Positions 12,903-63,440 of a DNA stretch of 64,000 nucleotides are shown here, piece by piece. Under the pieces are notes generated by a model. It had not been told where the DNA came from and did not search any database. It saw nothing but the letters and a program-made list of their open reading frames with translations. Origin of the DNA: Alphaproteobacteria bacterium (lineage in GTDB: Bacteria; Pseudomonadota; Alphaproteobacteria; M2410). The stretch's first letter is position 1; each line of letters starts with the position of its first letter. The position numbers and the translations under genes were made by a program. The DNA is taken from positions 153,091 to 217,090 of the forward strand of contig OZ252216.1 in assembly GCA_965248915.1 (NCBI GenBank), in the 5' to 3' direction.

Positions 12903-15098
12903 ATGAAAAATCGGGCGGACGTGGTTCATGAGAACTTCCTGAACCGTGTGAAATCTGAAGACTTTCCGAACCCCAGGTCATCCGTCAGCCTGGAAGACGC
13001 TGGGCTCAACACATCGCAATTGGTTGAGATGTTTGAAACCCAAGTCTTGAGTCGACACTTGGACCTACAATCGCGCAAACTCCAAGCACGCGGCGAGGGC
13101 TTTTACACAATCGGTAGTTCTGGGCACGAGGGCAATGCGGCCATTGCTGCTGCGTTTCGAATAGGCGATATGGCGTTCCTGCACTACCGTGATGCCGCCT
13201 TCCATATTCAGAGGTCAAAGAAGGTGCCGGGTCAAACTCCGATCTGGGACATGCTCTTGAGCTTTGTCGCCTCCAGTGACGATCCCATTTCCGGTGGGCG
13301 TCATAAAGTTCTGGGCAGTAAGGCGCTTTCGATCCCCCCTCAAACCAGCACCATTGCGTCCCACCTTCCAAAGGCGGTTGGGGCTGCCTACAGCATCGGC
13401 CTTTCACGCCTCATGAAACGAGAAGGGGATCTCGACCGCGACGCTGTCATCCTGTGTAGTTTTGGTGACGCGTCGGTCAATCATTCGACCGCTCAAGGCG
13501 CCATCAACACGGCCTGCTGGACATCCTTCCAAGGCGTACCGCTTCCCTTGGTTTTTGTGTGTGAAGACAATGGTATTGGCATTTCTACCAAAACCCCCTC
13601 CAACTGGGTCGAGCGAAGCTGCGGTCATAGACCGGGTCTTGCCTATTTCAAATGCGATGGCCTGAGTCTCCTCGACACCTACCGAGCCGGACAGGTCGTA
13701 GAGCAATACGTTCGCCGCCATCGTAAGCCTGTCTTTCTTCACATGGGCTGCGTGCGCCTCTTTGGACATGCCGGAGCGGACGTTCAAGAGAGTTACATGC
13801 CCAAGCAAGAGATCTTGGAAATGGAAGCAAACGATCCGCTTCTGCATTCAGCGCGCATCATCGTTGAAAACAATATCCTAACCTCTCAGGAAATTCTCGA
13901 CCTTTACAAGAGAACCGAGGACCGCGTAATCCGAACGGCGGAGGAGGTTATCAAACGTCCCAAATTGGCCACACGGGCCGACATTCGCGGCAGCTTAATC
14001 CCGCCAATGAAGGAGCCCGCCCAGGTCGCCGACAAGGTCGCATTGGCTGAGCGAGGACAGTCACCGCAGCATATGGCCCGCCTCATCAATTGGGCCCTCG
14101 CTGACATCATGGCAGAACGTCCCAATGTCGTTTTGGCCGGGGAGGATGTCGGCGCTAAGGGCGGCGTCTATGGCGTCACAGCCAAACTCTCTGAGACGTT
14201 CGGCAATCACCGTGTCATCAACACACTGCTTGACGAGCAAAGCATTCTGGGGCTCGCCATCGGTCTCGCCCACAATGGTTTTATCCCGATCCCGGAAATC
14301 CAATTCCTCGCCTATGTCCACAATGCAGAAGACCAAATCCGCGGTGAAGCATCGACCTTGAGTTTTTTCTCCAACGGTCAATACACCAACCCAATGGTTA
14401 TTCGCATTGCAGGACTTGGTTATCAAAAAGGGTTTGGCGGACACTTCCACAATGACAATTCCATCGCCGCTTTGCGTGACATTCCGGGCATTGTGATTGC
14501 CTGTCCGAGCAATGGCGCCGACGCGGTCGGCATGTTGCGTGAATGCGTGCGTCTCGCCGAAGAAGAACAACGCGTGGTGATTTTCTTGGAGCCAATTGCG
14601 CTCTACATGACGCGCGATTTGCATGAGCCTAAGGACGGTCTTTGGACATTTCCCTACAAAGCACCTTCCAAAATGGAAGGTGTAAAAGTAGGAGAGGTCA
14701 GCCTTCACGGATCAGGTGAAGACCTTTGCATCCTCACTTTCGGTAACGGTGTCTATCTCAGTCGCCAGGCTGAAAAAGTCTTGCAAGAGGATTACAAGGT
14801 CAACACGCGCATTGTCGATCTGCGCTGGCTTGCGCCTCTGAATCAAAAGTCGATCATGAAGGCGATTGGTCCTTGCAAGAAAGTTCTGATTGTTGATGAG
14901 TGTCGTGCCACCGGATCTCAAAGTGAGGCTCTGGTCACGTTGCTTCATGAGCATGGGGCAGGTGATCTTGCAATCGGCCGCATCACCGCAGACGATACGT
15001 TCATTCCGTTGGGCCGTGCTGCCACGGTGCCTCTCCCAAACAAAGAAGAGATCGTTGAAGCAGCGATGAACCTGGTAAACGGGGGAGAAGCGTCATGA
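12903..15098 (+). CDS. thiamine-diphosphate-dependent 2-oxoacid dehydrogenase E1 component, fused alpha/beta subunits
   Basis: N-half resembles E1-alpha (TPP-binding GDAS…NH region, GSSGHEGNAA). C-half resembles E1-beta / transketolase-like Pyr and C-terminal domains. 731 aa counted from the ATG at 12903; the track ORF starts upstream at 12822. Confidence 0.8.
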   Translation: MKNRADVVHENFLNRVKSEDFPNPRSSVSLEDAGLNTSQLVEMFETQVLSRHLDLQSRKLQARGEGFYTIGSSGHEGNAAIAAAFRIGDMAFLHYRDAAFHIQRSKKVPGQTPIWDMLLSFVASSDDPISGGRHKVLGSKALSIPPQTSTIASHLPKAVGAAYSIGLSRLMKREGDLDRDAVILCSFGDASVNHSTAQGAINTACWTSFQGVPLPLVFVCEDNGIGISTKTPSNWVERSCGHRPGLAYFKCDGLSLLDTYRAGQVVEQYVRRHRKPVFLHMGCVRLFGHAGADVQESYMPKQEILEMEANDPLLHSARIIVENNILTSQEILDLYKRTEDRVIRTAEEVIKRPKLATRADIRGSLIPPMKEPAQVADKVALAERGQSPQHMARLINWALADIMAERPNVVLAGEDVGAKGGVYGVTAKLSETFGNHRVINTLLDEQSILGLAIGLAHNGFIPIPEIQFLAYVHNAEDQIRGEASTLSFFSNGQYTNPMVIRIAGLGYQKGFGGHFHNDNSIAALRDIPGIVIACPSNGADAVGMLRECVRLAEEEQRVVIFLEPIALYMTRDLHEPKDGLWTFPYKAPSKMEGVKVGEVSLHGSGEDLCILTFGNGVYLSRQAEKVLQEDYKVNTRIVDLRWLAPLNQKSIMKAIGPCKKVLIVDECRATGSQSEALVTLLHEHGAGDLAIGRITADDTFIPLGRAATVPLPNKEEIVEAAMNLVNGGEAS

Positions 15099-16138
15099 CA
15101 GATAAGCAAACAGCACTCGTGGTCTGTCCCGGACGGGGTACCTACAACAAACCTGAACTGGGTTACTTCACCAGACATCACCCAGACAAGACGGATCTCC
15201 TCAAGAGATTTGATACCTTTCGCACTAGCAAAGGACAAGTTGAGATTAGTGAACTGGACCGCCGCGAACGGTTTTCCATGAAAGACTTCTCACGCGGCGA
15301 CAACGCATCCGCGTTGATTTACGCCTGTGCCTACGCCGACTTTCTCTCCATCGACCGCGAGAAATTCGATATCATCGCGGTGACCGGCAACTCCATGGGG
15401 TGGTACATCGCCACCGCTTGTGGCGGTGCGGTGAGCGAGGCCGGGGGTCTCGAGGTTATCAACACCATGGGCACATTGATGCATGACCATCTCGAAGGCG
15501 GACAAGCAATCTATCCGCTGATGGATGAAGAGTGGCATACAATTCCGGGGCGCCGTGAGGAGTTGTTGGGCCTCATCGACGACATTCATCACGAGCAGAA
15601 TAACAGGCTCTATGTTTCCATCGACCTTGGCGGCATGTTGGTCTTTGGCGGCGAAGACAAAGCGCTGGATCTATTGATGGAAAAACTGCCGGAAGAGCAG
15701 GGACGCTTTCCGCTTCGTTTGAACAATCACGCGGCGTTTCACACGCCTATTTTGCAAGACAATTCTGAGCGCGGCAAGGCACTGCTGTCGCAGGATCTGT
15801 TCCACCGCCCGTCCCTTCCCCTCATAGATGGACGCGGACACATATGGACCCCTTACTCTTCTGACCCAATTGAGATGTGGGACTACACACTCGGCGCTCA
15901 AATTGTCTCAACCTATGACTTCACGCGCGCCGTAGCGGTCGGCACGCAAGAGTTCTCGCCAGACTGCATTATCATCTTAGGTCCCGGCACCACACTGGGG
16001 GGCGCCGTGGCTCAATCCCTCATTTCGATTGATTGGCAGGGCCTGTCGTCAAAGGACGATTTTGTGAAAAGACAAAAATCAGACCCGATCATTTATTCCA
16101 TGGGAATGGACGATCAACGTGCAGAAGTTACAACATAG
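15095..16138 (+). CDS. acyltransferase-domain protein of the malonyl-CoA:ACP transacylase (FabD-like) superfamily
   Basis: GNSMG nucleophile elbow (GHSLG in FabD) and a downstream AAFHTP motif matching the FabD AFHS His. Its ATG overlaps the E1 stop (ATGA), indicating translational coupling. Confidence 0.55.
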   Translation: MTDKQTALVVCPGRGTYNKPELGYFTRHHPDKTDLLKRFDTFRTSKGQVEISELDRRERFSMKDFSRGDNASALIYACAYADFLSIDREKFDIIAVTGNSMGWYIATACGGAVSEAGGLEVINTMGTLMHDHLEGGQAIYPLMDEEWHTIPGRREELLGLIDDIHHEQNNRLYVSIDLGGMLVFGGEDKALDLLMEKLPEEQGRFPLRLNNHAAFHTPILQDNSERGKALLSQDLFHRPSLPLIDGRGHIWTPYSSDPIEMWDYTLGAQIVSTYDFTRAVAVGTQEFSPDCIIILGPGTTLGGAVAQSLISIDWQGLSSKDDFVKRQKSDPIIYSMGMDDQRAEVTT

Positions 16139-19123: not shown

Positions 19124-19615
19124 TTAGTCGGTGTCAGGAGATCCAACAAAGATTTCCATTTTGTGCCCAAACCCTTGGCTATTGTCGATGAGGCGAATCC
19201 ACTGTGGGCGAAAACAGAAATACGGAGTTTCGTTCAACCGCGTCACCAAATCTTGTTTGGCCGGATCGTCTTTATCACCATCTTTGGGTTGGAGGAATGA
19301 AAACTTCTCGAGATAGAGGTCGTTAGCGCAAGAAGCATCAGCGGTGTCAACTTGGTTGCAGCTCCCGACGGCCTGAATACCAACAATACTTTGCCACTCT
19401 TGCCCATCATCTTGGATCGTCGCAGCGATTTGTGCGGTTTGAGTGATGTCGATGCCGTGCCGAGTGCTGGGGCTGGTCTTGAAGAAAAAATTGAAATTGT
19501 CACCGTTGGCGTAAAAGACCGCTGCGGCCCAGGGGCCATCCTCGCCAAGGGTCGCCAACGTCATTGTGTTATGCGTTGCCAGGTAGTTGAGGATACGTGT
19601 GTGATCATCCGACAT
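19124..19615 (-). CDS. pyridoxamine 5'-phosphate oxidase-like FMN-binding (split-barrel) family protein
   Basis: …ILNYLATHNTMTLATLGEDGPWAAAVFYA… is the typical PNPOx-like N-terminus. 163 aa. Confidence 0.55.
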   Translation of the reverse strand: MSDDHTRILNYLATHNTMTLATLGEDGPWAAAVFYANGDNFNFFFKTSPSTRHGIDITQTAQIAATIQDDGQEWQSIVGIQAVGSCNQVDTADASCANDLYLEKFSFLQPKDGDKDDPAKQDLVTRLNETPYFCFRPQWIRLIDNSQGFGHKMEIFVGSPDTD

Positions 19616-19619: not shown

Positions 19620-20198
19620 CTAGTCGATACTTTTGCTCATACCGGACCAACGTTTGACCCGGCCTGTGTCGATGTCAAAGAGGTCCAAGACACGGCCGAC
19701 GCTGTGATTGATGATGTCATCGATGCTTTGTGGATTGTTATAAAAGGCGGGCATCGGTGGCGCGATGATAATCCCCATCTGTGCGGCCTCATAGAGGAGC
19801 TTGCAATGTCCAACATGCAGTGGTGCTTCCCGCGGCATCAAGACCAGGCGCCGTCCTTCTTTCAAGACGACATCTGCAGCCCTGGTGAGAAGATTGTCCG
19901 CATTTGAGTGCACGATCGCTGAGAGTGTTCGGATCGAACATGGCGCAACAAGCATACCGTCTGTCTTGAAAGACCCAGATGAAATAGTCGCTCCGAGATT
20001 CTTGCTTGAATGGACTTCATGGGCGAGGCCTTCGATGTCTTTGACCGTCCATTCGGTTTCCGCAGCAATAGTCGCGCGCGCACCATCAGAGAGGACGAGA
20101 TGCGATTCAACATCCGAAATTTCAGACAATGTTTCTAGGGCGCGGATGCCATAAATGGCACCGCTTGCACCGGATATGCCGACGATGATGCGTCTCAT
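19620..20198 (-). CDS. ubiX: UbiX-family flavin prenyltransferase (prFMN synthase)
   Basis: MRRIIVGISGASGAIYGIRALE… N-terminus and about 190-aa length. The 50-aa extension in the track ORF has no homology. Confidence 0.85.
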   Translation of the reverse strand: MRRIIVGISGASGAIYGIRALETLSEISDVESHLVLSDGARATIAAETEWTVKDIEGLAHEVHSSKNLGATISSGSFKTDGMLVAPCSIRTLSAIVHSNADNLLTRAADVVLKEGRRLVLMPREAPLHVGHCKLLYEAAQMGIIIAPPMPAFYNNPQSIDDIINHSVGRVLDLFDIDTGRVKRWSGMSKSID

Positions 20199-20365
20199 TG
20201 ACAAATCGCTCCACTCTCGATCCGAGGAAACATAGTGCTTATGTGTCCGTCGGGCCAGGTCAAAGAGAGCCAGGGTAAATGACGGCGAGTTTCCCAATGC
20301 CTTTGGCGAGGGCCATAGTTCATGTAGGGTGCCCTGAGCGTTAAGCAAGGAATGATCGACGACTG

Positions 20366-21571
20366 ATGACCATCAATGGCGAAATGGTATTTGAGAGCTG
20401 GGAACTCGCGAAGCTAAAACTGCGCAACCGTGTCATCCGAGCCGCAACTTACGAAGGTCGTACACCAGGCGGCAAGATCACAGATGAACAGATCGACTTT
20501 CACCGCGACCCGTCCGCCGGCGGTGTGGCCATGACCACCGTTGCCTATGGTGCGGTCTCAAAGGACGCACGTACTTTCGATGATCAGATTGTGTTGTCCG
20601 AGGACGAGATTCCGAATCTGAAGCGATTGACTGAAGCCGTGCAATCAGAAGGCGCTGCAGCTTCCATTCAACTGGCCCACGCAGGCGGATTTACACGGGC
20701 CACTGGCAGATCAACCTGGGCATCACGAGCGCCGTCCAGCGGGTTCAACACATACGGTCTGATGTCCGGATCCCCGTTCATGAAATCTCTCACGACCAGC
20801 GAAATGGACGAAATCGTTAAGGATTATGTTCGCGCCGCTGCGGTCGCGCGCGAGGCTGGTTTCGATGCTGTCGAAGTGCATATGGGCCATGGCTATCTCT
20901 TAAGTCAGTTCTTAAGCCCGGCTCTCAATCACCGTCGAGATCAGTATGGTGGCACGACCAACAATCGGACGCGATTTCCCCGCCGGGTTGCAGAAGCTCT
21001 ACGAAAAGAGTTGGGAACAGACTTTCCGATTCTAGCAAAGGTGAACCTCAGTGATGGTGTTCGCGGTGGTTTATGTACGACCGAGGCAACAGAGGTCGCC
21101 TGTCATCTCGAAAGCACGGGGCTCAACGCACTCGTATTGTCAGGCGGCATCGTCAGCAAGTCGCCGATGTTTCTCTTTCGTGGCGGCAGCCCTCTCAAAG
21201 CCATGGTGGCTGTGGAATCATCTGCATTTCGAAAGGCCATTTTGAGAATTGGCGGTGCGCGGATGCTGCGCGAGTTGCCCTTTGAGGAACTCTTCTTTCT
21301 TGATCAGGCCCGCCAAATTCGCGCGGCGGTAGATATGCCCTTGGTACTCATTGGAGGGGTGCGCAGCCGCGCCAATATCGAAAAAGCAATCGCGGAAGGC
21401 TTCGATGCGGTCGCCATGGGCCGCCCCCTTATTCACAATCCCAACTTGATCAATGAGTTCAAATCCGGCCAGTCTCACCGATCTCTCTGCGACAATTGCA
21501 ATCGTTGTGTCGGAGAGATGGAATCCGCACACGGTGTGGTGTGTGTCACCCGGCGCGAGACGCAAAGTTAG
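20366..21571 (+). CDS. NADH:flavin oxidoreductase, Old Yellow Enzyme family
   Basis: …LRNRVIRAATYEG… and …IQLAHAGG… TIM-barrel FMN motifs. 401 aa with no Fe-S extension. Confidence 0.8.
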   Translation: MTINGEMVFESWELAKLKLRNRVIRAATYEGRTPGGKITDEQIDFHRDPSAGGVAMTTVAYGAVSKDARTFDDQIVLSEDEIPNLKRLTEAVQSEGAAASIQLAHAGGFTRATGRSTWASRAPSSGFNTYGLMSGSPFMKSLTTSEMDEIVKDYVRAAAVAREAGFDAVEVHMGHGYLLSQFLSPALNHRRDQYGGTTNNRTRFPRRVAEALRKELGTDFPILAKVNLSDGVRGGLCTTEATEVACHLESTGLNALVLSGGIVSKSPMFLFRGGSPLKAMVAVESSAFRKAILRIGGARMLRELPFEELFFLDQARQIRAAVDMPLVLIGGVRSRANIEKAIAEGFDAVAMGRPLIHNPNLINEFKSGQSHRSLCDNCNRCVGEMESAHGVVCVTRRETQS

Positions 21572-21576
21572 ATGGT

Positions 21577-23199
21577 CTAAGCGGTTGGGTGTGACCCATT
21601 GGCGCGAGATGGTGCTTTGCGCGTGCTGCTTGTCTTGCGTTTCGTTTTAGCTTTCGCCTTCGTTTTTGCCTTAGCTTTAGCCTTCGATTTAGCTTTTGGC
21701 TTTGCTTTGGTTTTCGGTCTTGCAGATTTTTTGGCCACAGGTTTCTTCAGCGGTTTTTCCTCTTCGCCCTGGCCCAATCCATGAAGGAAGAGGGTTCTCA
21801 CATCCGCAATGTGTTTCTCGAGATTCTTCACATCCCAATCCTTAGTCGAAATGGGTGGTAGAACTTTGACTTCAATCGTTGTCGGTCGGGCGATGGCCGA
21901 TCCTTTGGGCATGGCATCCGTTGTATTCATCAAAAGGACCGGAACGATGGGCGCGTCTGCCTGCATCGACAAATGAAACCCGCCTTTCTTAAACGGTCCT
22001 AGCTTGTTGGTGACACTCCGGGTTCCTTCCGGCGCCATCATGACCGAAATGCCTGACTTCAACCCATCAATGGCTGGTTTGATAGCCTCGATGGCTTTTT
22101 CTGTATTGGAACGGTCAACAAAGAAAGTTCCAAGGGCGCGCGCCACCTGGCCGATTACAGGTTGTTTGCTGATCTCGATCTTTCCAATAGGGGCAAAGTC
22201 ACGCTTCAAGAGCTTGATCATGACAATCGCGTCAACAGCGCTTTGATGATTGAACATGAAGATTGCGGGTCGATGGGACCACAGGTGTTCTTCACCTTCC
22301 GTATTGATTCTAAGGCCTGTCGAGGCTGCCGACAATTCGCCCCAAACGGAATTGAAGATGTTACGTGCTTGCCAGGGGGAGCGGTTAAGCGCATAGGCCG
22401 ACAACGCTGCCGAGGCCGCAACCATGGAAGAACCATAAGCGAGCCCCGTACGCACGACATCCATTGTTGAAGGTGTGCCGCGGCTATCAAATCTGGTGAT
22501 GGGCCAGTCCCGTTCCTCTGCGATGCGCGTGAGCTTGCGTCCCGGATTAAGAGGGCGGGGATACTTCACCGCGTCTAGGAGTGGCAAATCCTCTGAACCG
22601 TCGGAATAGAAGTAGCTCTTAAGGAGGTCGGCGCCTTTTTCATCGCACAAAGCTTGAGCGGCCACGAGTTTTCCTTCGCCGTAACAGGCAGGTTCGATAA
22701 TGCGGCCAGTACAAACGCCGTTCTCAACTTCTAAATGATTGCAGAGAACGTTGTCGATGCCAAAGTCTTCGGCAACAGGGTCGACCTGATACGACGTCGC
22801 CGAAGAGACGATGGCAACAGTGTGCCCTTTGCGGAAGTGTGCCTCGATCAACCCGCGTGCTTCAGGATAAATCCGTGCGGCGACGCGTTCATCAAAGACT
22901 TTGCGTCCAAATTCGCAATTGGTTTCATCAAGCTGACCGCGCAAGGATGAGATCGTCGCGTTGACCCACTCGGTGAAGTCAATTTTGCCGCGCGCGAACT
23001 CCGTTGAAACGGCGACCCCGTCAATCAGCTCCGGGATCGACATATCACCTTCTTTGAGGCGCTCAACGAACAAGTCTTGAGCTGAAAACCCTGCCAGGAC
23101 GGTCTTGTCCATGTCGAAAAAGGCACCGACGGTCGAGCCTGAGGGGCCATCTTCGATGTCCCGCAACAATGTTTGATAGGTCGCCATAATTCTTCCCAA
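21577..23199 (-). CDS. bifunctional HAD-IB family phosphatase / 1-acyl-sn-glycerol-3-phosphate acyltransferase (PlsC-like) with Lys/Ala-rich basic C-terminal tail
   Basis: N-half has HAD motif I FFDMDKTV and motif IV …YSDGSEDLPLL. C-half has the LPLAT H(x4)D motif (NHQSAVD) and EGTRS motif. The last about 50 aa are KAKxK repeats. The start lies 4 nt after the plsB stop. Confidence 0.75.
   Translation of the reverse strand: MGRIMATYQTLLRDIEDGPSGSTVGAFFDMDKTVLAGFSAQDLFVERLKEGDMSIPELIDGVAVSTEFARGKIDFTEWVNATISSLRGQLDETNCEFGRKVFDERVAARIYPEARGLIEAHFRKGHTVAIVSSATSYQVDPVAEDFGIDNVLCNHLEVENGVCTGRIIEPACYGEGKLVAAQALCDEKGADLLKSYFYSDGSEDLPLLDAVKYPRPLNPGRKLTRIAEERDWPITRFDSRGTPSTMDVVRTGLAYGSSMVAASAALSAYALNRSPWQARNIFNSVWGELSAASTGLRINTEGEEHLWSHRPAIFMFNHQSAVDAIVMIKLLKRDFAPIGKIEISKQPVIGQVARALGTFFVDRSNTEKAIEAIKPAIDGLKSGISVMMAPEGTRSVTNKLGPFKKGGFHLSMQADAPIVPVLLMNTTDAMPKGSAIARPTTIEVKVLPPISTKDWDVKNLEKHIADVRTLFLHGLGQGEEEKPLKKPVAKKSARPKTKAKPKAKSKAKAKAKTKAKAKTKRKTSSTRKAPSRANGSHPTA
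21600..21745 (-). repeat. imperfect short tandem repeats (gcyttrgcyttcg-like) encoding the Lys/Ala/Pro-rich tail
   Basis: Visible on the + strand as repeated gctttagccttcg / gcttttggctttg units. Translation on the minus strand gives KPKAKSKAKAKAKTKAKAKTKRK. Confidence 0.6.
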
Positions 23200-23202
23200 A
23201 CC

Positions 23203-25569
23203 TCAGTCTTCTTGGCGGCTTAGCACCATTGTGACGATAATGTCGAGTCGGCGGGAGATATCTCGCATATCCTGCGCCCATTGAACCCGCCGTTCGGCCA
23301 CTTCCGCGCCGCCCTCGTCAAGCCCGCGATTGGTGGCGAGTTTTAAGCCCGTTTCATAAAGGCTTTTGGAAACTGATTCTTCCGAGAAAATCCGACTTTG
23401 CAAATACATCTGCTTTCCAAGTTTGATGCAGTCAGCCAAAAAGGACTTGGCGTCTTCAACCGGCTCAGATCCGAGGCGACAAAGAGCTTGAGCCACAACC
23501 GAATAGGCATCCGTGAAAGAACGAAGAACTCCCTGGGCCACAAGGGGTCTTGTTTCATCAAGCGCATCGCGCGCTGCATGACCGCCCTCTCTGAGAGCCG
23601 CTTCCCAACTCTTCGTGCGCGCTTTGAGTTCAGAATCAACTTCCGCCCGAAACTCGTCTTTTGGCGGGAAGTAAAACTCAAACTTCAACAAATCTCTCAA
23701 CGCTTCCACTTCACGCCAGAACACCAGCGCGCCGTCTTCACTAGGACGATCCGAGACCTTCATGAGCGCCAGCTCAACAATGGCATCGACAACAAAGAAG
23801 TGAATGATGGTATTTCGGTAATACGCCGCTTTGAGATACTCACCGCGACATATTGCGTAGACCTTCTCAAGTCCCTCTTCGTAACAGGTTACCACCCCAT
23901 TGCGGGTCAACTGTTCAAGCGTTAGCTCAATGGCTTCGAGGGTGTCGAGCTCTAGAGGTCCGGCTGTCGGAAACTGCCGACGATTGACGACTTCCATCCA
24001 GGATTGAATGGTCCGCTGAATACCTTTGAGGGTGCGCGCTCGTGTGCTATTGGCGAGGAGGGACAGTGTTACCAATGAAGTGGCCGTTATGGGAGTGACC
24101 TCATTGATACGAACGGCGACTTGGAAAGCGAGCTTTTGTACGGCTTCGGTTTTTTGGTCTGCATTGAGGCCGTCATTGAGGCGCTCTGGGGGAACAATGT
24201 CAGGAAGACGAAGCGGTTCGCCAAAGCGCAAGAAGATGCGGCCGAGCTTTTGCTTGGAGCGGAGGAACTTTGCGATCCAAGCCATGCCCTCTGGCTTCTT
24301 GTCGAGCCCTCGCTGTTCGCGAATATAGTCATCGACTTCATTGATCTGATCATAGGCAATTGTGACCGGAACAAATGTGACGTCATAGCTCTTGTTTCTC
24401 AGGATCGATTCAACGAAGTAATTGAACATGCCATACCGTGGCGGCAGCAGTTTTCCGGTTCGAGACCGTGTTCCTTCAAATGCCCAAACAAACGAAAAGC
24501 GCTTGTCGACCATATAGTCAATGTAACGCCGGAATGTTGCCTTGTAGGTTTCATTGTCTTGGAAACTGCGCCGAATAAAGATGACACCAGCGTTCTTGCC
24601 AAGGGCGCCAAGGCCAAAGGTATTGAGATTGATGCCGCCGAAAGCCATGGGCGGCGGCAGATTGTTGTCAAACAAAGTGACCGACAAAGCGACCGTATCG
24701 AGCATTGACTTGTGAGTGACCAAAAAGACCACAGGCCTTGAGGTGAGCAAGTCGCGAACTTCTTCCAACTGCCCTTTGTCATAGTCAATTTCAGGATCGT
24801 ACGTACTCACATACATGGCGCGTTGCAGCGCAATGAAGCAATCGAGTGTGAACGGGTTTTGAGCTGCCGCCATTTCTTTGAGATACGCTTCGGCTTTCTC
24901 GCGGACCTGCGGTAAGTCAGCATCGCCCGACTGGGAAATATCAACCAGCTTCTTTTGATAGGTTTGGTCCGAGAAGACGTCACTAGTGAGAAGTTTCGGC
25001 ACCTTGTATCTCGCGCCGCGCAAGACACGTTCGGCTCGTTCCAAGACGACGGCGGCCTGACGCAAGACAAAATCGCTCAGAGTGCTGTCATCAAATTCCG
25101 CTGAACCCCAATCGTCTTCAAATTGGCGTCGCACATCGCTCAAATGGGCGCCGAGACCTGCAGCACATTTTACCCGGTCAGGATGTCTCTTGAGCAGCCA
25201 GCGCCCTCTAAATCTTCCAGGGTGTTGAACGATCCCGGCAAAGAGGTCTTGAACGAGGGGAAATCTTTTCTCCGCGCTGCTTTGCCCAAGCCACACCACG
25301 CGCACCGGTTGGAGCCAGGGGTCATGGCCATATTGCGTGGTACTTTCAATAACCGATGATAGGTCGCTTTGGGCATCCCCACCAATATTGCAAAATGAGT
25401 GATCGACATTTTCGCCGTCGGAATGGTCCGCGATCCATTTCTTGAGGATCTCGTCTTCCAGATCATTCGCCGCATCCAACAGAAAAATAACCTGAGCTTT
25501 GCCTGCCCAAGGGCCAGTGGAAGTTTCTTGATCAACGGCGGTTTCGTGCAAGATGGTCGTTTGACTCAT
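23203..25569 (-). CDS. plsB: glycerol-3-phosphate 1-O-acyltransferase
   Basis: 788 aa, the same size as E. coli PlsB (807 aa). Contains VTHKSMLDTVAL (H(x4)D) and FEGTRSRTGKLL motifs. Confidence 0.85.
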   Translation of the reverse strand: MSQTTILHETAVDQETSTGPWAGKAQVIFLLDAANDLEDEILKKWIADHSDGENVDHSFCNIGGDAQSDLSSVIESTTQYGHDPWLQPVRVVWLGQSSAEKRFPLVQDLFAGIVQHPGRFRGRWLLKRHPDRVKCAAGLGAHLSDVRRQFEDDWGSAEFDDSTLSDFVLRQAAVVLERAERVLRGARYKVPKLLTSDVFSDQTYQKKLVDISQSGDADLPQVREKAEAYLKEMAAAQNPFTLDCFIALQRAMYVSTYDPEIDYDKGQLEEVRDLLTSRPVVFLVTHKSMLDTVALSVTLFDNNLPPPMAFGGINLNTFGLGALGKNAGVIFIRRSFQDNETYKATFRRYIDYMVDKRFSFVWAFEGTRSRTGKLLPPRYGMFNYFVESILRNKSYDVTFVPVTIAYDQINEVDDYIREQRGLDKKPEGMAWIAKFLRSKQKLGRIFLRFGEPLRLPDIVPPERLNDGLNADQKTEAVQKLAFQVAVRINEVTPITATSLVTLSLLANSTRARTLKGIQRTIQSWMEVVNRRQFPTAGPLELDTLEAIELTLEQLTRNGVVTCYEEGLEKVYAICRGEYLKAAYYRNTIIHFFVVDAIVELALMKVSDRPSEDGALVFWREVEALRDLLKFEFYFPPKDEFRAEVDSELKARTKSWEAALREGGHAARDALDETRPLVAQGVLRSFTDAYSVVAQALCRLGSEPVEDAKSFLADCIKLGKQMYLQSRIFSEESVSKSLYETGLKLATNRGLDEGGAEVAERRVQWAQDMRDISRRLDIIVTMVLSRQED

Positions 25570-25626
25570 TGGCTGTTCGTTTCCTCACCGACTTCTCAAA
25601 TATGAAGTGGGATCAATACAGTTGAA

Positions 25627-27063
25627 CTACTTGGCGGTCTTCAATTTTGCGAAAGCCGCTTTTCTCAATTCGTTGTAAGATTGGTCAATGCACTCAGCGT
25701 AAAAATCAGGGTCAGGAAGATGTTCCCGACAAGCTGTTATAGAAATCGTTAGCGTGTTCTTGTGGCTGGTCACCGCGTGGAAAATGCCCATGCCGTCTCC
25801 AAGCGGCGCCATGCCGTACCCGGCGACGAGCTTTGCGCCAGCAAAGAAGATATCCATGGGAAGTCCGGGGACATTCGACACGAATGTATTGCAGATAGGC
25901 CGCATTTTGGAGATCCATTTCATACCTTCAGCACGGCGAAAAGTTGCCGACGCGAGGGCAGGGCTCAAAATGCCGGATATATGGGAGAGAAGATCGGGGC
26001 CGCGAACCGCAGCCATTCGCTTTGCGTCCTGAGTTCGGATGCGAATGGCTTGAAGTCGCGCGATGGGATCTTCTATATCCGTGCCCATGGCAACAGCCAT
26101 ATCTGAAATCTGGTTTCCTCCATCCCCTTCAGCCCCTTCGGTTCTGACCGAGATCGGGCACATCGCCACCAGCGATGTTTTCGGAAGTTCTTCTTTTGCC
26201 AATAGGTAGCGTCGCATCGCGCCGGCGCAAATGGCAATGGCGGCATCATTGATGGTCGCACCATTGATCGCTTTTCTGAATTTTCGAATGTCTTCGAGCA
26301 CATACTCGCGCCCCTCAAAGACGCGGTGCACCGATACCGGTTCGTTAAAGCGCGTGCGTGGGACGGAGGGACTCTTTAGCAGACGTTCCTGCCGTCGCGA
26401 CCGACCGGCTTTGAGTTCTCCGCGAATGAGCGCGGATGTGTGTCCGATCGACGTGAGCGGTTGCTGAACGAGATTTGGCAGAGCGCGCGTAAGCAGAGCG
26501 GCATCCGTGGGCAGGCTTTCATCTGTCCCATCAAATGAATCGGTTCCTTTGTCACGCGAGGCCTCTGGATCAAGTTCGTGTATGGCCTCCATAAGTGCGA
26601 TCGCCGAGACTCCATCTGTGAGGATGTGATGGATCTTGATGAGGACTGCAAAACTACCTTTCGGGATGTTGTCAATATTGTCTAAGCCGCCAATGACATA
26701 CATCTCCCACATCGGACGATTCATATCGAGAGGTCGGGAATAGATGCGGGCCAAGAGAATGCACAGCTGTTTCCAATCGCCTGGCTTTGGCAAGGCGATG
26801 TGGCGAACATGAAATTCAAGGTCAAAATCAGGATCATTGGCGAGATACGGCAGATCCAAGTCCATGGGTACGCGGACCAGTTTCTGCCGAAACGGCTCCC
26901 AGAGGTGCAGGCGCTCCCGCATATACTGCAGGATCTCCATGAACCTTACTTTGCCGCCTGGCGCCGAAGAGGGATCATAGATAGAAACACCACCGACGAC
27001 GCTCGGCGTATGCGGTGTATCCGCATAGAAGAAGACGGCATCTGTGTTGGAGATTTGCTTCAT
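25627..27063 (-). CDS. wax ester synthase / acyl-CoA:diacylglycerol acyltransferase (WS/DGAT) family
   Basis: HHILTDGVS active-site motif (HHxxxDG). 478 aa with a typical WS/DGAT N-terminus MKQISNTDAVFFYADTPHTP. Confidence 0.85.
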   Translation of the reverse strand: MKQISNTDAVFFYADTPHTPSVVGGVSIYDPSSAPGGKVRFMEILQYMRERLHLWEPFRQKLVRVPMDLDLPYLANDPDFDLEFHVRHIALPKPGDWKQLCILLARIYSRPLDMNRPMWEMYVIGGLDNIDNIPKGSFAVLIKIHHILTDGVSAIALMEAIHELDPEASRDKGTDSFDGTDESLPTDAALLTRALPNLVQQPLTSIGHTSALIRGELKAGRSRRQERLLKSPSVPRTRFNEPVSVHRVFEGREYVLEDIRKFRKAINGATINDAAIAICAGAMRRYLLAKEELPKTSLVAMCPISVRTEGAEGDGGNQISDMAVAMGTDIEDPIARLQAIRIRTQDAKRMAAVRGPDLLSHISGILSPALASATFRRAEGMKWISKMRPICNTFVSNVPGLPMDIFFAGAKLVAGYGMAPLGDGMGIFHAVTSHKNTLTISITACREHLPDPDFYAECIDQSYNELRKAAFAKLKTAK

Positions 27064-27227
27064 ACCCGGCCTTCAGATTCGACAACCACACCATGGAACG
27101 CTAGATTCCAAGGACATTGTGCCCAATATGCGGCTGTAAGTGTAGGTTTTTGTTTTTGCAGAGCCACGCCACGATGAAGCGCTGTTCCATGTCGCTGGTT
27201 CGGCTGTGGTTGACGTAAGGGGAAACT

Positions 27228-28235
27228 ATGAGCAATCCGTTGAATGTTGGTATTTTGGGTGCCGGTTCTTGGGGAACTACCGTTGCCTCCCTCGTCGCCC
27301 GAAACGCAAACGCGCTTTTGTGGGCGCGGGACCAGAAGTCGGTTGACGAGATCAACAATAATCACTCCTTGGAAAAATACCTACCGGGCGGATCCCTCAA
27401 CAAATCTCTTCGCGCAACTAATAGCATTGAGGAGGCGGTGCGTGGTGCCGACGTGATCATCATGGGCATTCCGTCGCAAAATTTTCGTTCGGTTCTAAAA
27501 GATGTTTCCAAACACATTCGAGCTTGGGTGCCCATCATCAGTCTCTCCAAGGGTCTTGAGCAGGGGTCCAGGTTGCGAATGACCCAAGTCATTGAACAAG
27601 TATTGCCGGGACATCCGCCCGGCGTCTTGACCGGTCCAAACTTGGCGCGGGAGATCATTTCCGGGGATGCCGCTGCCAGCGTCATTGCCATGGAAGACGA
27701 TGCCATTGTGAAGGCCCTTCAAAGCATTTTTCGCTCAGGGCTCTTTCGCGTTTACACAAACAACGATGTTACCGGGTGTGAGCTTGGTGGGGCGCTGAAA
27801 AATGTCGTCGCAATTGCTGCCGGAATGGGCGATGGCTTAGGCGCCGGCGACAATACCAGATCAGCCGTGATCACACGTGGGCTGGCCGAGCTCACAAGAT
27901 TGGGAACAGCCCTTGGCGGGCGCCCGGAAACCTTCGCAGGATTGGCAGGCATGGGGGATCTAGTGGCGACCTGCACGAGTCAGCAGAGCCGGAACAGATA
28001 TGTAGGCGAACAACTAGGCAAGGGACGATTGCTCGACGACATCATCAACGAGATGCACATGGTCGCCGAAGGCGTCAAGAGTGTTGGCGCCGTCATGGAG
28101 CTTTCCCAAGAGCACAATGTCGAAATGCCCATTGCCCAAGAGGTCTATGACGTCGTGCATCAAGGCGGTGGCCCGCACCGTGCCTTCAGAGGATTGCTCC
28201 GCAGCCAGTCAGGCGCGGAATGGGAGCCGGGCTAG
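27228..28235 (+). CDS. gpsA: NAD(P)H-dependent glycerol-3-phosphate dehydrogenase
   Basis: VGILGAGSWGTTVA Rossmann motif and GpsA-typical regions (…GIPSQ…, …NLAREI…). 335 aa. Confidence 0.9.
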   Translation: MSNPLNVGILGAGSWGTTVASLVARNANALLWARDQKSVDEINNNHSLEKYLPGGSLNKSLRATNSIEEAVRGADVIIMGIPSQNFRSVLKDVSKHIRAWVPIISLSKGLEQGSRLRMTQVIEQVLPGHPPGVLTGPNLAREIISGDAAASVIAMEDDAIVKALQSIFRSGLFRVYTNNDVTGCELGGALKNVVAIAAGMGDGLGAGDNTRSAVITRGLAELTRLGTALGGRPETFAGLAGMGDLVATCTSQQSRNRYVGEQLGKGRLLDDIINEMHMVAEGVKSVGAVMELSQEHNVEMPIAQEVYDVVHQGGGPHRAFRGLLRSQSGAEWEPG

Positions 28236-28269
28236 AACCCGACCCCACATCGATACCAAAACAACGATT

Positions 28270-28959
28270 CTATTCGGTTTTGCCGCCCAATAGCCCTGCG
28301 CGAAACAAAAAGCCCGCGACGACCGCTCCGAGGATTGGCGCGACTAAGAACAACCAGAGTTGGCTGATCGCCTCTCCGCCAACAAAAACAGCGGGGCCAA
28401 TGCTGCGGGCTGGGTTGACCGATACGCCGGTGACATTGATGCCGACGATGTGGATGACCACAAGTGCGATCCCGATCGCAAGACCCGCCACGGGCGTTGT
28501 TCCGGCCTCATCGGTTGACCCGAGTATTGTCACAACGAAAAGAAAGGTTGCGACAAACTCAAAAATGAATGCCGCGGTCATGGCATACTCACCCATATAC
28601 CCATCGCCCCAGCCATTTTTCCCGAGACCCGACGCAGCAACGTCATACCCGCCAAGTTGGCCACCAACGATGAGAAGAAGAACGCCTGCACCAAGCACTG
28701 CGCCAACGATCTGCGCGACAATGTACGTGCCCAGTTTAGATGCGGGCATCCGGTTCGCGATGACAGCTGCAATGCTGACCGCAGGATTGATATGGCATCC
28801 CGAAATGGGGCCAATACCGTAAGCCATAGCGATGAGTGCAAAGCCGAATGCGAAGGCGATCCCCAATACACCAATGTCACCACCAGCGATGACAGCCGCG
28901 CCGCAGCCAAAGAGCACAAGCGTGAACGTGCCAATAAGTTCTGCCAAAAAGATTTTCAT
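28270..28959 (-). CDS. aqpZ: aquaporin Z (MIP family water channel)
   Basis: Two NPA boxes (HINPAVS, VNPARS). MKIFLAELIGTFTLVLFGCG N-terminus. The ATG at 28959 is chosen over the extended track start. Confidence 0.9.
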   Translation of the reverse strand: MKIFLAELIGTFTLVLFGCGAAVIAGGDIGVLGIAFAFGFALIAMAYGIGPISGCHINPAVSIAAVIANRMPASKLGTYIVAQIVGAVLGAGVLLLIVGGQLGGYDVAASGLGKNGWGDGYMGEYAMTAAFIFEFVATFLFVVTILGSTDEAGTTPVAGLAIGIALVVIHIVGINVTGVSVNPARSIGPAVFVGGEAISQLWLFLVAPILGAVVAGFLFRAGLLGGKTE

Positions 28960-34374: not shown

Positions 34375-35400
34375 TCACTCGCTCTCGACAGGTCCACCAT
34401 TCTCGATCCAGCCTGCGCAATCAAGCGAGAGAGTTTTCCCCATCACTTCTTCGTAGAGTTTAAGGTCTTCTTCGTTGAGGACGTCTTTCCAGCGGCCATT
34501 GGTTCCCTTGTTGATAAAGGTGTCGGCACCCCCTTTGAAGCCGAAATCAATGCCGGGCCCCGTGACTATGTCCGGGTTCTTTTTCACGGTGGCAAAGGTA
34601 CAGGCTTCAACAATTCCCGGCCATTTCTCTTCCGGAATTTCGATATTCAGATAGGAGGCAACACGCTTCATTTCCTTGTCGAGGTCATCAAGCATGTCGC
34701 CGTAATGGAAGAACTCGATGTTTGGTAAGTTTCGGAATTCCCACCAGGTTTTGATGTGATGGAGGTGTGACCAATAAGGCCATCCATCGTTCTCCCAATC
34801 AAACCATCCTTGCGTCATCCACTTTTGCCAACTCCCATGAACATCGCCATCGTAAGTGGGCATTGGATCGCCGACGCGGTCTGGAATGATGTTCATGAGG
34901 TCCAGAAACTCCGGTGTATGATTTCCCCAGTGATTGAGCAATGACATGAACACGTCGCGCGGGTCGCGGCCAACAACAATGTACTTTGCTTCTGGATAAT
35001 AGGGCAGACCGTCGAGCGGGAGGTGTGACTTGATGAACCGGCGATGTGTTTGCGCTTCGAGAGTCCCCAACACGTCGTCGAGGGGGAAGATCCTCATATC
35101 GAGCCAAGGCGAAATCTCAGTAATGACTCCAGGTATTTCCCGGTCCCAAAAGATCAAGTAGGCCACAATCGTCTGCATCCAAGTCGTGCCTGCCTTGTAA
35201 GATGTGGAAATGATCACATCATCAGGACGAACCTTGAAATCACGCCACCGTTCTGTATCGAGGTGATGGTTTTGATAGATGTGGCGGATTTCTGGTTTGG
35301 ACTTGGTGGACACGAACGGGCCTCCGCAACAGGTGAATGTAAGAATCACTCTAAGGTCTAAGAAGCCGTCTGCAAAGGTCGCCGATCTTAACGGGGACAT
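34375..35400 (-). CDS. PAPS-dependent sulfotransferase (cytosolic SULT-like Sulfotransfer_1 fold)
   Basis: 5'-PSB motif YKAGTTW and 3'-PB motif RDPRDVFMS. The start is uncertain, since the N-terminal extension is long for the family. Confidence 0.7.
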   Translation of the reverse strand: MSPLRSATFADGFLDLRVILTFTCCGGPFVSTKSKPEIRHIYQNHHLDTERWRDFKVRPDDVIISTSYKAGTTWMQTIVAYLIFWDREIPGVITEISPWLDMRIFPLDDVLGTLEAQTHRRFIKSHLPLDGLPYYPEAKYIVVGRDPRDVFMSLLNHWGNHTPEFLDLMNIIPDRVGDPMPTYDGDVHGSWQKWMTQGWFDWENDGWPYWSHLHHIKTWWEFRNLPNIEFFHYGDMLDDLDKEMKRVASYLNIEIPEEKWPGIVEACTFATVKKNPDIVTGPGIDFGFKGGADTFINKGTNGRWKDVLNEEDLKLYEEVMGKTLSLDCAGWIENGGPVESE

Positions 35401-35480: not shown

Positions 35481-36569
35481 ATGTCTCTATCAAAGTTCCT
35501 GCAGATCTATGTTGTGCCAGGTGCTGTGTTTCAGTCGATCCTCGTTGGTGGTGGCTACGGCACCGGTCGCGAAGTGGTGGAGTATTTCACGCAATATGGC
35601 GCTGTCGGCGGGCTCATGGCCATCGCGGTTGCTTTTTCTCTATTTTTACTTGTCATCGGTTTGACATTTGAAATTGGTCGAAGATTTCAAGCTTATGACT
35701 ACCGCACATTTTTTCAACAGATCCTGGGGCGAGCTTGGCCAGCGTACGAAATTTTCGCGTTCTTTATGTTGATGCTTGTCTTTGCGGTTCTCATTTCAGC
35801 AGCCAGCGAAGTGCTCAATGATCAATTCGGTGTGCCAATACCTGCTGGCATGGCTGTCATGCTTCTGCTGGTTGGGACCTTGGAATATTTTGGCCGCGAG
35901 GTGGTGACCAGGGTGCTAACCTTTTGGTCGCTTTTTCTTTACATCGTCTTCATTGCGTTTCTTGTCGCCGTATTCTCACAGCTTTCTGGTCGAATTGGTG
36001 AGGCATTCGATGCCGGGGCCGTTGAGCCCGGTTGGGCGCTCTCAGGCTTCAAATACGCCATGTACAACATGACAGCGGCACCGATTGTACTCTACGTGGC
36101 GCGCGCGTTTGAGACCCGCTCCCAGGCGCTCACCTCGGCCGGGATTGCCACGGTGATTGCCCTTGCGCCTGCTTTGATTTTTCACGTAGCTTTTCTCGGC
36201 GCCTATCCCGAAATTCGAGCAGTCAACATTCCCGTTTACAGCATGATGGGTGATCTGGGCTTGGGCGTGTTGATGGTCTTCTTCACCATCATGTTGTTCG
36301 GTACGCTGATCGAAACCGGTGCGGGGGTTTTGCAAGGGATCAACGAGCGGATTGATACGCATAGAAGCGAACGTGGTCTGAAGTCCCTTAGCAAAGTCTC
36401 TCATTCTCTGATCGCAGTCGGCTTGATGAGTCTCAGCGCAATTCTGGCGAGTTTCGGCATTGTGGGCTTGATTGCCAAAGGTTACGGCACTCTGTCGTGG
36501 GGCTTCTTCGCGATCTACTTCATTCCGCTTGTGACGGTTGGCGTCTACAGACTCATGAACTCGAAGTAA
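35481..36569 (+). CDS. YkvI-like / APC-superfamily-like polytopic membrane protein
   Basis: About 11 TM segments. N-terminal …FQSILVGGGYGTGREVVEYF… resembles the YkvI-family GAGFASGQE motif. Confidence 0.45.
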   Translation: MSLSKFLQIYVVPGAVFQSILVGGGYGTGREVVEYFTQYGAVGGLMAIAVAFSLFLLVIGLTFEIGRRFQAYDYRTFFQQILGRAWPAYEIFAFFMLMLVFAVLISAASEVLNDQFGVPIPAGMAVMLLLVGTLEYFGREVVTRVLTFWSLFLYIVFIAFLVAVFSQLSGRIGEAFDAGAVEPGWALSGFKYAMYNMTAAPIVLYVARAFETRSQALTSAGIATVIALAPALIFHVAFLGAYPEIRAVNIPVYSMMGDLGLGVLMVFFTIMLFGTLIETGAGVLQGINERIDTHRSERGLKSLSKVSHSLIAVGLMSLSAILASFGIVGLIAKGYGTLSWGFFAIYFIPLVTVGVYRLMNSK

Positions 36570-62111: not shown

Positions 62112-63320
62112 TTACTGGGTATTGAACGCCCTTTGCAAGTCGCGGCACAAATCCTCTCCGTTTTCAAGGCCAACCGACAATCTCAGGAGCCCCGGGCGAA
62201 TGCCGAGTTCCGCCCGCGCTGCCGCGCTGAGTTTCGAATGTGTCGTGGTCGAGGGGTGGGTGATCAAACTCTTAGCATCGCCCAGATTGTTCGAGATTCT
62301 GATGATCTCAAGCTTGTTGGCGACCTTAAAGGCGCGCTCTTTTCCGCCCTCGATCTCAAAGGCAACCACATTACCACCTCGCAGCATTTGCTTCGTTGCC
62401 AAATCCCTTTGTGGATGGTCGGACCGTCCTGGATAGAGAGCCTGGGTCACCAAGGGATGATCGGCCAAGAATTCCGCCACCAATTCAGCGTTGTCGCAAT
62501 GCCTATGAACCCGCAGGTCCAACGTCTCAAGGCTCTTGAGAAGTACCCATGCATTAAACGGCGAGAGGGTGGGTCCAGTGTTGCGCAAGAATGGTTTGAG
62601 ATCTTTGAGAATGAACTCTTCATCATTAGACAGAACAATCCCGCCCAGACACCGACCTTGTCCATCAATGTGTTTTGTCGCGCTATAAATCACAATGTCT
62701 GCACCTAGGTCCAAAGGCTTTTGAAGGATGGGTGTTGCAAAAACGTTATCAACGATCAATCGCGCGCCTGCATTTTTAGCAAGAGCGGCAACAGCCGAGA
62801 CATCCACCAAGCTGACAGTGGGGTTCGAGGGCGTCTCAAGGAAGAACGCCTTGGTATTGGGTTGGATCGCGTCTTTCCAAGCGTCAATGCTCTCGCCGTC
62901 CACCAGTGTTGAAGTGATGCCGAGCCTCGGGCACAAAGTCTCAACAACATATCGACAAGACCCAAAGAGGGCTTTCGCCGCGACAATGTGGTCCCCGGCC
63001 GAAAGAGCCGACAAGAGCGCTGAAGTGACCGCTGCCATACCTGTCGCGGTTGCGCGCGCCAAATTGGCGCCTTCGAGCAGGCACATCCGGTCTTCAAACA
63101 TTTGGACCGTTGGATTTTCAAACCGACTATAGGCAAAGCCGTCATCTTGTTCTTTGAAACGGGCTTCCGCCTGTTCTGCATTTTCGTAGATGTACCCGGA
63201 GGTAAGAAAGATCGATTCGCTGGTCTCGCCAAACTGCGATCTCTGCGTGCCGCCATGTACCTGGCGTGTCTGTGCGTGCCATTCGCGCGCTTTTTCGAGG
63301 TCTTTTGATGTGTCCGTCAT
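62112..63320 (-). CDS. metZ: O-succinylhomoserine sulfhydrylase (Cys/Met-metabolism PLP enzyme)
   Basis: Cys/Met metabolism PLP fold (…IVIYSATKHIDGQG… PLP-lysine region). MetZ-like N-terminus …WHAQTRQVHGG…. Confidence 0.85.
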   Translation of the reverse strand: MTDTSKDLEKAREWHAQTRQVHGGTQRSQFGETSESIFLTSGYIYENAEQAEARFKEQDDGFAYSRFENPTVQMFEDRMCLLEGANLARATATGMAAVTSALLSALSAGDHIVAAKALFGSCRYVVETLCPRLGITSTLVDGESIDAWKDAIQPNTKAFFLETPSNPTVSLVDVSAVAALAKNAGARLIVDNVFATPILQKPLDLGADIVIYSATKHIDGQGRCLGGIVLSNDEEFILKDLKPFLRNTGPTLSPFNAWVLLKSLETLDLRVHRHCDNAELVAEFLADHPLVTQALYPGRSDHPQRDLATKQMLRGGNVVAFEIEGGKERAFKVANKLEIIRISNNLGDAKSLITHPSTTTHSKLSAAARAELGIRPGLLRLSVGLENGEDLCRDLQRAFNTQ

Positions 63321-63334: not shown

Positions 63335-63361
63335 TAAAAAACCCGCCTCTGACCGGGCGGG
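63335..63361 (-). terminator. intrinsic terminator/attenuator hairpin inside the metZ 5' leader
   Basis: On the minus strand: CCCGCC-CGGUCAGA-GGCGGG followed by UUUUUUAUU. It ends about 14 nt before the metZ ATG. Confidence 0.5.
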
Positions 63362-63432: not shown

Positions 63433-63440
63433 TACTTGGT

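Follow-up and report, generated by a model that had tools for sequence, protein, structure and literature searches.

We analyzed a 64,000-nucleotide stretch of DNA from a bacterium assigned to the Alphaproteobacteria (GTDB lineage M2410; assembly GCA_965248915.1, contig OZ252216.1, positions 153,091 to 217,090). This whole stretch is referred to as the window, and all positions are counted from its first nucleotide. The gene of concern here encodes a HAD-IB phosphatase domain fused to a PlsC-type acyltransferase domain. Its maximal open reading frame (ORF) spans 540 codons (21577..23199, reverse strand) with an uninterrupted translation; the TTG at 23199 is merely the first possible start codon. 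The ATG at 23187, giving a product of 536 aa, is the likely start because homologs begin at the same position and this ATG lies 15 nt past the stop codon of plsB. A reading made earlier from the letters alone (the sequence-only reading) had described HAD-IB motifs I (DMDKT) and IV (DGSED) ahead of a complete lysophospholipid acyltransferase (LPLAT) domain, in a gene directly downstream of plsB and a wax ester synthase/diacylglycerol acyltransferase (WS/DGAT). Translation, Pfam, NCBIfam, and the coordinates agreed with this description. The features of the locus are listed in Table 1.

Table 1. Features of the fusion gene, its product, and its cluster in the window. Residues (aa) are numbered from the ATG at 23187; AF2, AlphaFold2; pLDDT, predicted local distance difference test; AGPAT, 1-acylglycerol-3-phosphate acyltransferase.
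Feature	Coordinates	Strand	Basis
HAD-PlsC fusion gene (536 aa + stop)	21577..23187	-	ORF, translation, Pfam, NCBIfam, homolog starts
HAD-IB phosphatase domain, TIGR01490 type, aa 1-235	22483..23187	-	Pfam, NCBIfam, AF2, Foldseek
HAD motif I, FFDMDKT, aa 23-29 (nucleophile D25, D27, T29)	23101..23121	-	translation, alignment
HAD motif II, SSATS (S128)	22792..22806	-	translation, alignment
HAD motif III, GEGK (K173)	22669..22680	-	translation, alignment
HAD motif IV, YSDGSED, aa 194-200 (D196, D200)	22588..22608	-	translation, alignment
Two long linker helices, aa 241-268 and 271-290	22318..22467	-	AF2 secondary structure, hydropathy, 5kym match
PlsC-type (LPLAT/AGPAT) acyltransferase domain, aa 292-470	21778..22314	-	PF01553, TIGR00530, 5kym
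Acyltransferase block I, NHQSAVD, aa 313-319 (HX4D: H314, D319)	22231..22251	-	translation, alignment
Acyltransferase block III, PEGTRS, aa 386-391	22015..22032	-	translation, alignment
Disordered Lys/Ala/Pro-rich C-terminal tail, aa 475-536	21580..21765	-	pLDDT, composition
PlsB-type glycerol-3-phosphate acyltransferase, actinobacterial PlsB2-like	23203..25569	-	PF01553 and GPAT_C, NF002886
WS/DGAT, first gene of putative operon	25627..27063	-	TIGR02946
gpsA (divergent)	27228..28235	+	Pfam, NCBIfam

Pfam placed PF12710 (HAD) at aa 22-204 with E 1.8e-31 and PF01553 (Acyltransferase) at aa 293-418 with E 1.8e-28 (99.4 bits against a cutoff of 23), and the Pfam and NCBIfam scores of both domains were far above chance level. 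The AF2 model of the protein had a mean pLDDT of 85.7 and a predicted template modeling score (pTM) of 0.79, with the HAD domain directly N-terminal of a PlsC-like two-helix motif. More than 3,900 homologs of the fusion were detected, which their sources name either "HAD-IB family hydrolase" or "putative phosphoserine phosphatase / AGPAT." The closest was 58% identical, the best match in the genomes returned by a pattern scan was 47% identical, and an exact-sequence look-up gave no record of an identical copy.

The HAD domain has all 4 catalytic motifs, since motifs II (S128) and III (K173), not mentioned in the sequence-only reading, were also present. D25, D27, T29, K173, D196, and D200 were invariant in 40 homologs (46-58% identity), and S128 was kept in at least 90% of them. 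The domain belongs to HAD-IB by its scores with TIGR01490 (HAD-SF-IB-hyp1; 150.5 bits, cutoff 98.3) and TIGR01488 (84.4 bits, cutoff 45). Structural modeling of the cap, which that reading had proposed, was performed with AF2 and Foldseek. The domain was predicted, with pLDDT mostly above 90, to consist of a Rossmann-like core and a helical C1 cap between motifs I and II (about aa 35-105) made of 4 helices at 35-46, 51-65, 71-80, and 87-100. The top Foldseek match in the PDB, and thus the closest solved fold, was 3fvv, a TIGR01490-type HAD protein of unknown function from Bordetella pertussis (TM-score 0.86-0.90, 25% identity). SerB enzymes came next, and the predicted fold matches both.

Assignments of the domain to SerB, histidinol-phosphatase, PAP2, and lipin were rejected. 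It fell far below the models for SerB phosphoserine phosphatase (TIGR00338, 40.9 bits against 144.15; NF008350, 28.6 against 413), scores that lend no support to the SerB-type clustering that would have spoken against the sequence-only reading. Its closest named NCBIfam relatives are the histidinol-phosphatases of Pseudomonas and Neisseria, but it scored well under their cutoffs (NF052360, 118.9 bits against 280; NF052359, 92.1 against 400). Unlike the fusion, these enzymes and 3fvv are standalone, soluble proteins. The domain of type 2 phosphatidate phosphatases (PAP2), PF01569, was absent from the fusion protein and from the 36 other window ORFs scanned with Pfam. Lipin/Pah1, the type 1 phosphatidate phosphatase (PAP1), had been offered as an analogy. 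The likeness held at the level of the HAD superfamily and the DxDxT nucleophile motif, but this motif is common to all HAD phosphatases and the likeness was therefore overstated. No LNS2/lipin Pfam profile matched even at E ≤ 10, and no lipin structure was found among the PDB sequence and profile matches at E ≤ 1 or the top 50 Foldseek matches; the domain also differs from lipin in its four-helix, SerB-like C1 cap. Judged by sequence and predicted fold, it is a capped, SerB-like HAD-IB domain that is neither a lipin nor a SerB. It may nevertheless work like a lipin without being one, as lipin acts on phosphatidate at the membrane surface to give diacylglycerol (DAG) for triacylglycerol (TAG), which is the mode proposed here for the HAD domain.

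In the acyltransferase domain, predicted as an alpha/beta fold, H314, R359, and P386-E-G-T-R390 were invariant in the same 40 homologs and D319 was kept in at least 90%. The domain falls within the PlsC/AGPAT family by TIGR00530 (AGP_acyltrn), although by a marginal pass (105 bits, cutoff 102.95). Thermotoga maritima PlsC (5kym) aligned with it at E 3e-21 (profile 3e-34), with a Foldseek TM-score of 0.78 and a probability of 1.0. The alignment extended over the two-helix region, and the linker helices of the fusion are positioned where T. maritima PlsC has its N-terminal two-helix motif; 5kym itself is without a phosphatase domain. As a putative AGPAT, the acyltransferase would accept 1-acyl-glycerol-3-phosphate. 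The highest 19-residue Kyte-Doolittle mean in the protein was 1.27, with no segment of transmembrane grade. Because the linker helices are only moderately hydrophobic, the fusion is probably monotopic, peripheral, or interfacial like PlsC rather than transmembrane.

The C-terminal tail contains 20 K, 12 A, and 6 P, carries a net charge of +21 over 62 aa, and lifts the predicted pI of the protein from 5.7 to 9.3. It was predicted to be disordered (pLDDT below 50), with the disorder spanning aa 477-536 in the AF2 model. Comparable AKP-rich tails occurred in about 16 of the 120 best homologs, and on one Halieaceae chromosome the tail has grown to about 160 aa of AAKKAPAAKKKP-type repeats (L001:11425-11905). 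In mycobacterial HBHA and Rhodococcus TadA, Ala/Lys/Pro repeats are needed for lipid binding and lipid-inclusion formation (PMC6176652). The composition of the tail is analogous to that of these lipid-inclusion-binding repeats. Its probable role is to hold the enzyme at an anionic membrane or lipid-droplet surface.

The fusion gene is the last of 3 genes in the same-strand order WS/DGAT, PlsB, HAD-PlsC, separated by gaps of 57 and 15 nt; the operon call was made from the shared strand and these gaps only. Scanning 21000-27400 for promoters and terminators yielded no signal exceeding the shuffled expectation. PlsB scored 745.5 bits with the actinobacterial model NF002886 (cutoff 721) and the WS/DGAT 393 bits with TIGR02946. 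The start codons of gpsA and WS/DGAT are 164 nt apart and divergent. Between them, the 4 genes provide the synthesis of glycerol-3-phosphate (G3P) and all 3 acyltransferase reactions of the Kennedy pathway; no phosphatase candidate other than the HAD domain is present in this cluster. Beyond the 3' end of the fusion gene, a gene for an Old Yellow Enzyme-type FMN oxidoreductase (20366-21571, +) converges on it and ends 5 nt from its stop codon, followed by genes for a UbiX-family flavin prenyltransferase (19620-20348, -) and a PNPOx-like/YhbP-like protein (19124-19615, -). At the other end of the cluster, an ORF of no Pfam family (28220-28822, +) shares 16 nt with the 3' end of gpsA.

The partners of this cluster co-occur in at least 4 different orders across Alphaproteobacteria, Gammaproteobacteria, and Actinomycetota. 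The best homologs came from Parvibaculaceae, which have the layout of the window, with gpsA next to WS/DGAT-PlsB followed by the HAD-acyltransferase pair (HAD-AT). The order was HAD-AT-GpsA-PlsB-WS/DGAT in one 5.3-Mb genome, HAD-AT-PlsB-WS/DGAT-GpsA on one Halieaceae chromosome, and PlsB-HAD-AT in an actinobacterial metagenome-assembled genome. A further 37 loci from Halieaceae, Luminiphilus, and Alteromonadaceae (L002-L039) had HAD-AT-PlsB, usually followed by GpsA, and PlsB adjoined HAD-AT in 38 of the 39 loci of the Halieaceae set. The examined loci are phylogenetically clustered, and the independent evidence is therefore the number of arrangements and not the number of loci.

Some of these loci had features of their own. 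In Parvibaculaceae, a patatin-like lipase (DUF3336 and Patatin) and an alpha/beta hydrolase flank gpsA (L081:3240-4715; L083:3172-4692); no patatin was found among the window ORFs scanned with Pfam. One actinobacterial metagenome-assembled genome has plsB followed by a HAD-less acyltransferase of 41% identity that starts at the two-helix motif (L048:7860-10639). In Myxococcota and Spirochaetales, the nearest standalone relatives of the HAD domain are encoded just downstream of mreC-mreD-pbp2-rodA (L040-L080, e.g., L046:5512-10657), a setting of cell elongation and not of glycerolipid synthesis. De novo clustering of neighboring ORFs was noisy in the high-GC Myxococcota loci, and identities were confirmed by Pfam. 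The fused and standalone HAD domains differ at G33/E, F71/I, S129/G, Y133-Q134/F-V, C149/Y, G170/E, and A176/W.

A search with only the HAD domain as the query, over 1.84 billion representative proteins, yielded 6,680 matches at E ≤ 1e-3, of which 180 reached E ≤ 1e-30. Several top matches were 850-1,090 aa long, and Pfam resolved them as larger fusions: PlsB(GPAT)-HAD-AT (P0124, P0155, P0223, and P0237), WS/DGAT-HAD-AT (P0142 and P0154, also P0395), and HAD-AT-WS/DGAT (P0192, with relatives P0270-P0388, and L088:7001-9970). The last architecture occurred in at least 120 protein clusters (66-91% identity, 99-100% coverage). It is common in Pseudonocardia, Blastococcus, and Geodermatophilus, where isolate genomes carry it on contigs of up to 9.9 Mb, and is thus not an assembly artifact. 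On a complete Pseudonocardia chromosome, it comes right after plsB, whose stop codon overlaps its start codon. PlsB-HAD-AT and WS/DGAT-HAD-AT recurred on independent contigs from different archives. In every larger fusion, the HAD domain was immediately N-terminal to the acyltransferase, indicating that HAD-AT behaves as a unit onto which neighboring enzymes of the pathway have been joined. The catalytic residues were kept in all of them with a single exception, the first Asp of motif IV in the actinobacterial HAD-AT-WS/DGAT set. When a phosphatidate producer, a phosphatase, and a DAG consumer share one polypeptide, the classical Rosetta-stone argument is that the phosphatase does the intermediate step. 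No description of the triple fusions was found in the literature searched.

Our preferred reading, held with moderate confidence, is that the gene encodes a bifunctional membrane-surface enzyme of TAG synthesis in which the HAD domain is a phosphatidate phosphatase (PAP) fused to a lysophosphatidate acyltransferase (LPAAT). Apart from the phosphatase step, for which the HAD domain is the lone candidate, the cluster covers the entire Kennedy pathway. GpsA would supply G3P, which PlsB would acylate to lysophosphatidate, and the PlsC-type domain would acylate this in turn to phosphatidate in the cytoplasmic leaflet. The HAD-IB domain, presumably Mg-dependent, would then remove the phosphate with D25 as the nucleophile and yield DAG, possibly with channeling of phosphatidate between the 2 active sites, while the two-helix linker would hold the HAD domain at the membrane interface. 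The WS/DGAT, if co-transcribed as the layout suggests, would acylate DAG to TAG. The sequence-only reading had proposed the same PAP-LPAAT fusion. Its architecture and context stood, it is still the best-supported reading, and the conserved gene association and larger fusions strengthened it; most homologs examined were in glycerolipid contexts, contrary to what would have counted against it. Its claim to novelty, like its lipin analogy, went too far.

This fusion, its cluster, and the PAP hypothesis have already been published and are not new. Amara et al. (2016) proposed from transcriptomics that the HAD domain of atf9-plsB-plsC in Rhodococcus is the PAP of the Kennedy pathway, and named Rv2483c as the M. 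tuberculosis counterpart of the PlsC-HAD fusion (PMC4850399). A 2023 PLoS One study of Antarctic and Subantarctic sediment metagenomes described the same cluster in Actinomycetota, Alphaproteobacteria, and Gammaproteobacteria with a G3P dehydrogenase adjacent, and labeled the gene "PAP/AGPAT" (PMC10351704). Like the window, those clusters contain WS/DGAT, GPAT, an AGPAT with a PF12710 HAD, and G3P dehydrogenase, and they were given the same interpretation. The larger fusions and the tail are not reported in that paper, where a text search for "fusion" turned up the AGPAT-HAD one and no other. Angala et al. (2023) continued to place Rv2483c among the uncharacterized "other PlsCs," and Rv2483c and Rv2484c have been located on mycobacterial lipid inclusions (PMC10699116). 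The window shares with Rhodococcus jostii RHA1 the order WS/DGAT, PlsB, HAD-AT on one strand and with the Rhodococcus/Mycobacterium system a PlsB of actinobacterial type (NF002886 above cutoff), and the actinobacterial HAD-AT proteins are clear homologs of the window fusion (L026, at 41-44% identity, and P0192). It differs from the RHA1/Rv2483c system in the gpsA in the locus, the polybasic tail, and its host, which a SAM_alpha riboswitch in the window and the Parvibaculaceae origin of the best homologs suggest to be an alphaproteobacterium. The M. tuberculosis gene order is tgs-plsC-plsB2 (Rv2484c/Rv2483c/Rv2482c).

The bacterial enzyme that converts phosphatidate to DAG for storage lipids is only partly known. 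PAP1 enzymes are stated to be absent from prokaryotes, and M. smegmatis from which both PAP2 enzymes are missing continues to produce DAG and TAG as the wild type does (PMC8225852), which indicates that a further PAP remains to be found. The description of bacterial PAPs in the sequence-only reading as poorly defined was too sweeping, since PAP2-type enzymes are characterized, even though the double mutants continue to make TAG. A wider proposal, on which we are evenly divided, is that the capped HAD-IB domain is a genuine Mg-dependent PAP of a third, bacterial class, with no kinship to PAP2 and only a distant one to lipins. HAD and AGPAT would form the conserved core of a modular "TAG synthase" repeatedly fused to PlsB or WS/DGAT, which would explain DAG and TAG in PAP2-null mycobacteria and streptomycetes, and the tail would be the proteobacterial counterpart of the lipid-droplet-binding repeats of HBHA and TadA.

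Several observations weigh against the PAP reading. The 2023 metagenome study, despite its label, stated that the function "remain[s] to be elucidated" (PMC10351704). No biochemical test of the fusion protein or any homolog was found in the searchable literature, where Rv2483c, MSMEG_4704, and HAD-type bacterial PAPs appeared only in in-silico or omics mentions. A capped, SerB-like HAD-IB fold usually serves small soluble phosphomonoesters, and the lipins, which are the known HAD-type PAPs, gave no match to the domain. The 37 loci from Halieaceae, Luminiphilus, and Alteromonadaceae, and with them most Halieaceae loci, had no WS/DGAT within 10 kb, 2 homologs were solitary, and the nearest standalone HAD relatives (39-46% identity) are in mreCD-rodA operons, not lipid operons. 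In all 120 actinobacterial HAD-AT-WS/DGAT fusions aligned, the first Asp of motif IV (D196 in the window protein) is Asn; lipins carry Asn at the same position (GNRxxD). Lastly, plant GPAT4/6, besides which no HAD and PlsC-family fusion is known to be characterized, reportedly dephosphorylates lysophosphatidate and not phosphatidate.

The main rival is built on this plant precedent, for which Angala et al. (2023) cite Yang et al. (2010). Plant GPAT4, GPAT6, and GPAT8 have the domain order of the window fusion, with an N-terminal HAD-like phosphatase and a C-terminal PlsC-family acyltransferase; they acylate G3P at sn-2 and dephosphorylate the lysophosphatidate to 2-monoacylglycerol. They are bifunctional enzymes of cutin synthesis, and no other HAD and PlsC-family fusion is known to have demonstrated phosphatase activity. 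By this unlikely scheme, the HAD domain would dephosphorylate lysophosphatidate, made by PlsB or by the acyltransferase domain acting as a GPAT, to monoacylglycerol that WS/DGAT would acylate stepwise. Besides the shared domain order, a capped HAD-IB active site would admit a single-chain lipid more easily, and PlsC-family enzymes can be GPATs, for example mycobacterial PlsM (Angala et al. 2023). However, PlsB, a dedicated GPAT, is the neighbor or fusion partner in nearly every context, so that a phosphatase for lysophosphatidate would draw on the same substrate as the acyltransferase domain to which it is joined. The acyltransferase domain also clears the AGPAT cutoff, if marginally. The window locus differs from the plant systems in having a separate GPAT, and the expected product is DAG.

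We assign a lower probability to action on another lipid phosphate, such as phosphatidylglycerol phosphate, diacylglycerol pyrophosphate, or polyprenyl phosphate, by which the enzyme would serve membrane and not storage lipids, for example by providing DAG or phosphatidylglycerol for remodeling. Most Halieaceae and Luminiphilus loci, with HAD-AT-PlsB-GpsA and no WS/DGAT nearby, would fit such a role, as would the close standalone HAD relatives beside rodA, a gene of lipid-linked cell-wall synthesis. E. coli PgpC, moreover, is a HAD-superfamily phosphatidylglycerol phosphate phosphatase. Yet no PgpC-type NCBIfam model matched at E ≤ 0.01, and the clusters examined had no conserved pgsA, cdsA, or glycosyltransferase partner. 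The direct fusions in both orders are to WS/DGAT, a consumer of DAG.

It is more doubtful still that the HAD domain is a small-molecule phosphatase, acting on phosphoserine, histidinol phosphate, G3P, or a similar compound and only incidentally tethered to PlsC. The legacy annotation "phosphoserine phosphatase / AGPAT" on homologs, the histidinol-phosphatases as the best characterized TIGR01490 relatives in NCBIfam, and the SerB enzymes as structural neighbors all point in this direction. In contrast, the scores are far under the equivalog cutoffs given above for both families, no serine or histidine biosynthesis genes lie alongside, and the domain has been fused repeatedly and independently to 3 different glycerolipid enzymes. 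A catalytically silent HAD domain, serving the acyltransferase as a scaffold, regulatory, or membrane-docking module, is very improbable: the HAD-less actinobacterial version suggests that the acyltransferase can function alone, and the motif-IV Asn of the actinobacterial triple fusions also speaks for it, but lipins have this same Asn, and the nucleophile Asp, the second Asp, Thr, Lys, and the second motif-IV Asp were invariant in 160 sequences across phyla, with the motif-II Ser kept in at least 90%, which is the pattern of a working active site.

If the PAP reading is correct, one module of 2 to 4 genes would encode the whole Kennedy pathway. The engineering of oil production could make use of such a module, and through Rv2483c, the putative ortholog of the fusion, it would bear on how persisting mycobacteria store lipids. 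For tests of substrate channeling, nature already provides constructs in the HAD-AT-WS/DGAT and PlsB-HAD-AT fusions. The window locus is another member of the published cluster in an apparently alphaproteobacterial genome and introduces no new principle; the additions made here are the larger multi-domain fusions and the polybasic tail.

Elsewhere in the window, we noted a protein with a lysyl-phosphatidylglycerol synthase TM-region domain (1926-2960, +) and 2 B12-binding radical SAM proteins (3307-4983, +; 5068-6669, -). Along with the ORF that overlaps gpsA, those at 15095-16138 (+) and 35481-36569 (+) were without a Pfam family, the 3 ranging from 200 to 362 aa. A protein at 34375-35400 (-) has a Sulfotransfer_1 domain, which is associated mainly with eukaryotic sulfotransferases. 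A SAM_alpha (SAM-II) riboswitch at 63361-63442 (-), scoring 46.7 bits and above the gathering threshold, lies upstream of a gene for a pyridoxal phosphate-dependent enzyme of Cys/Met metabolism (62112-63320, -).

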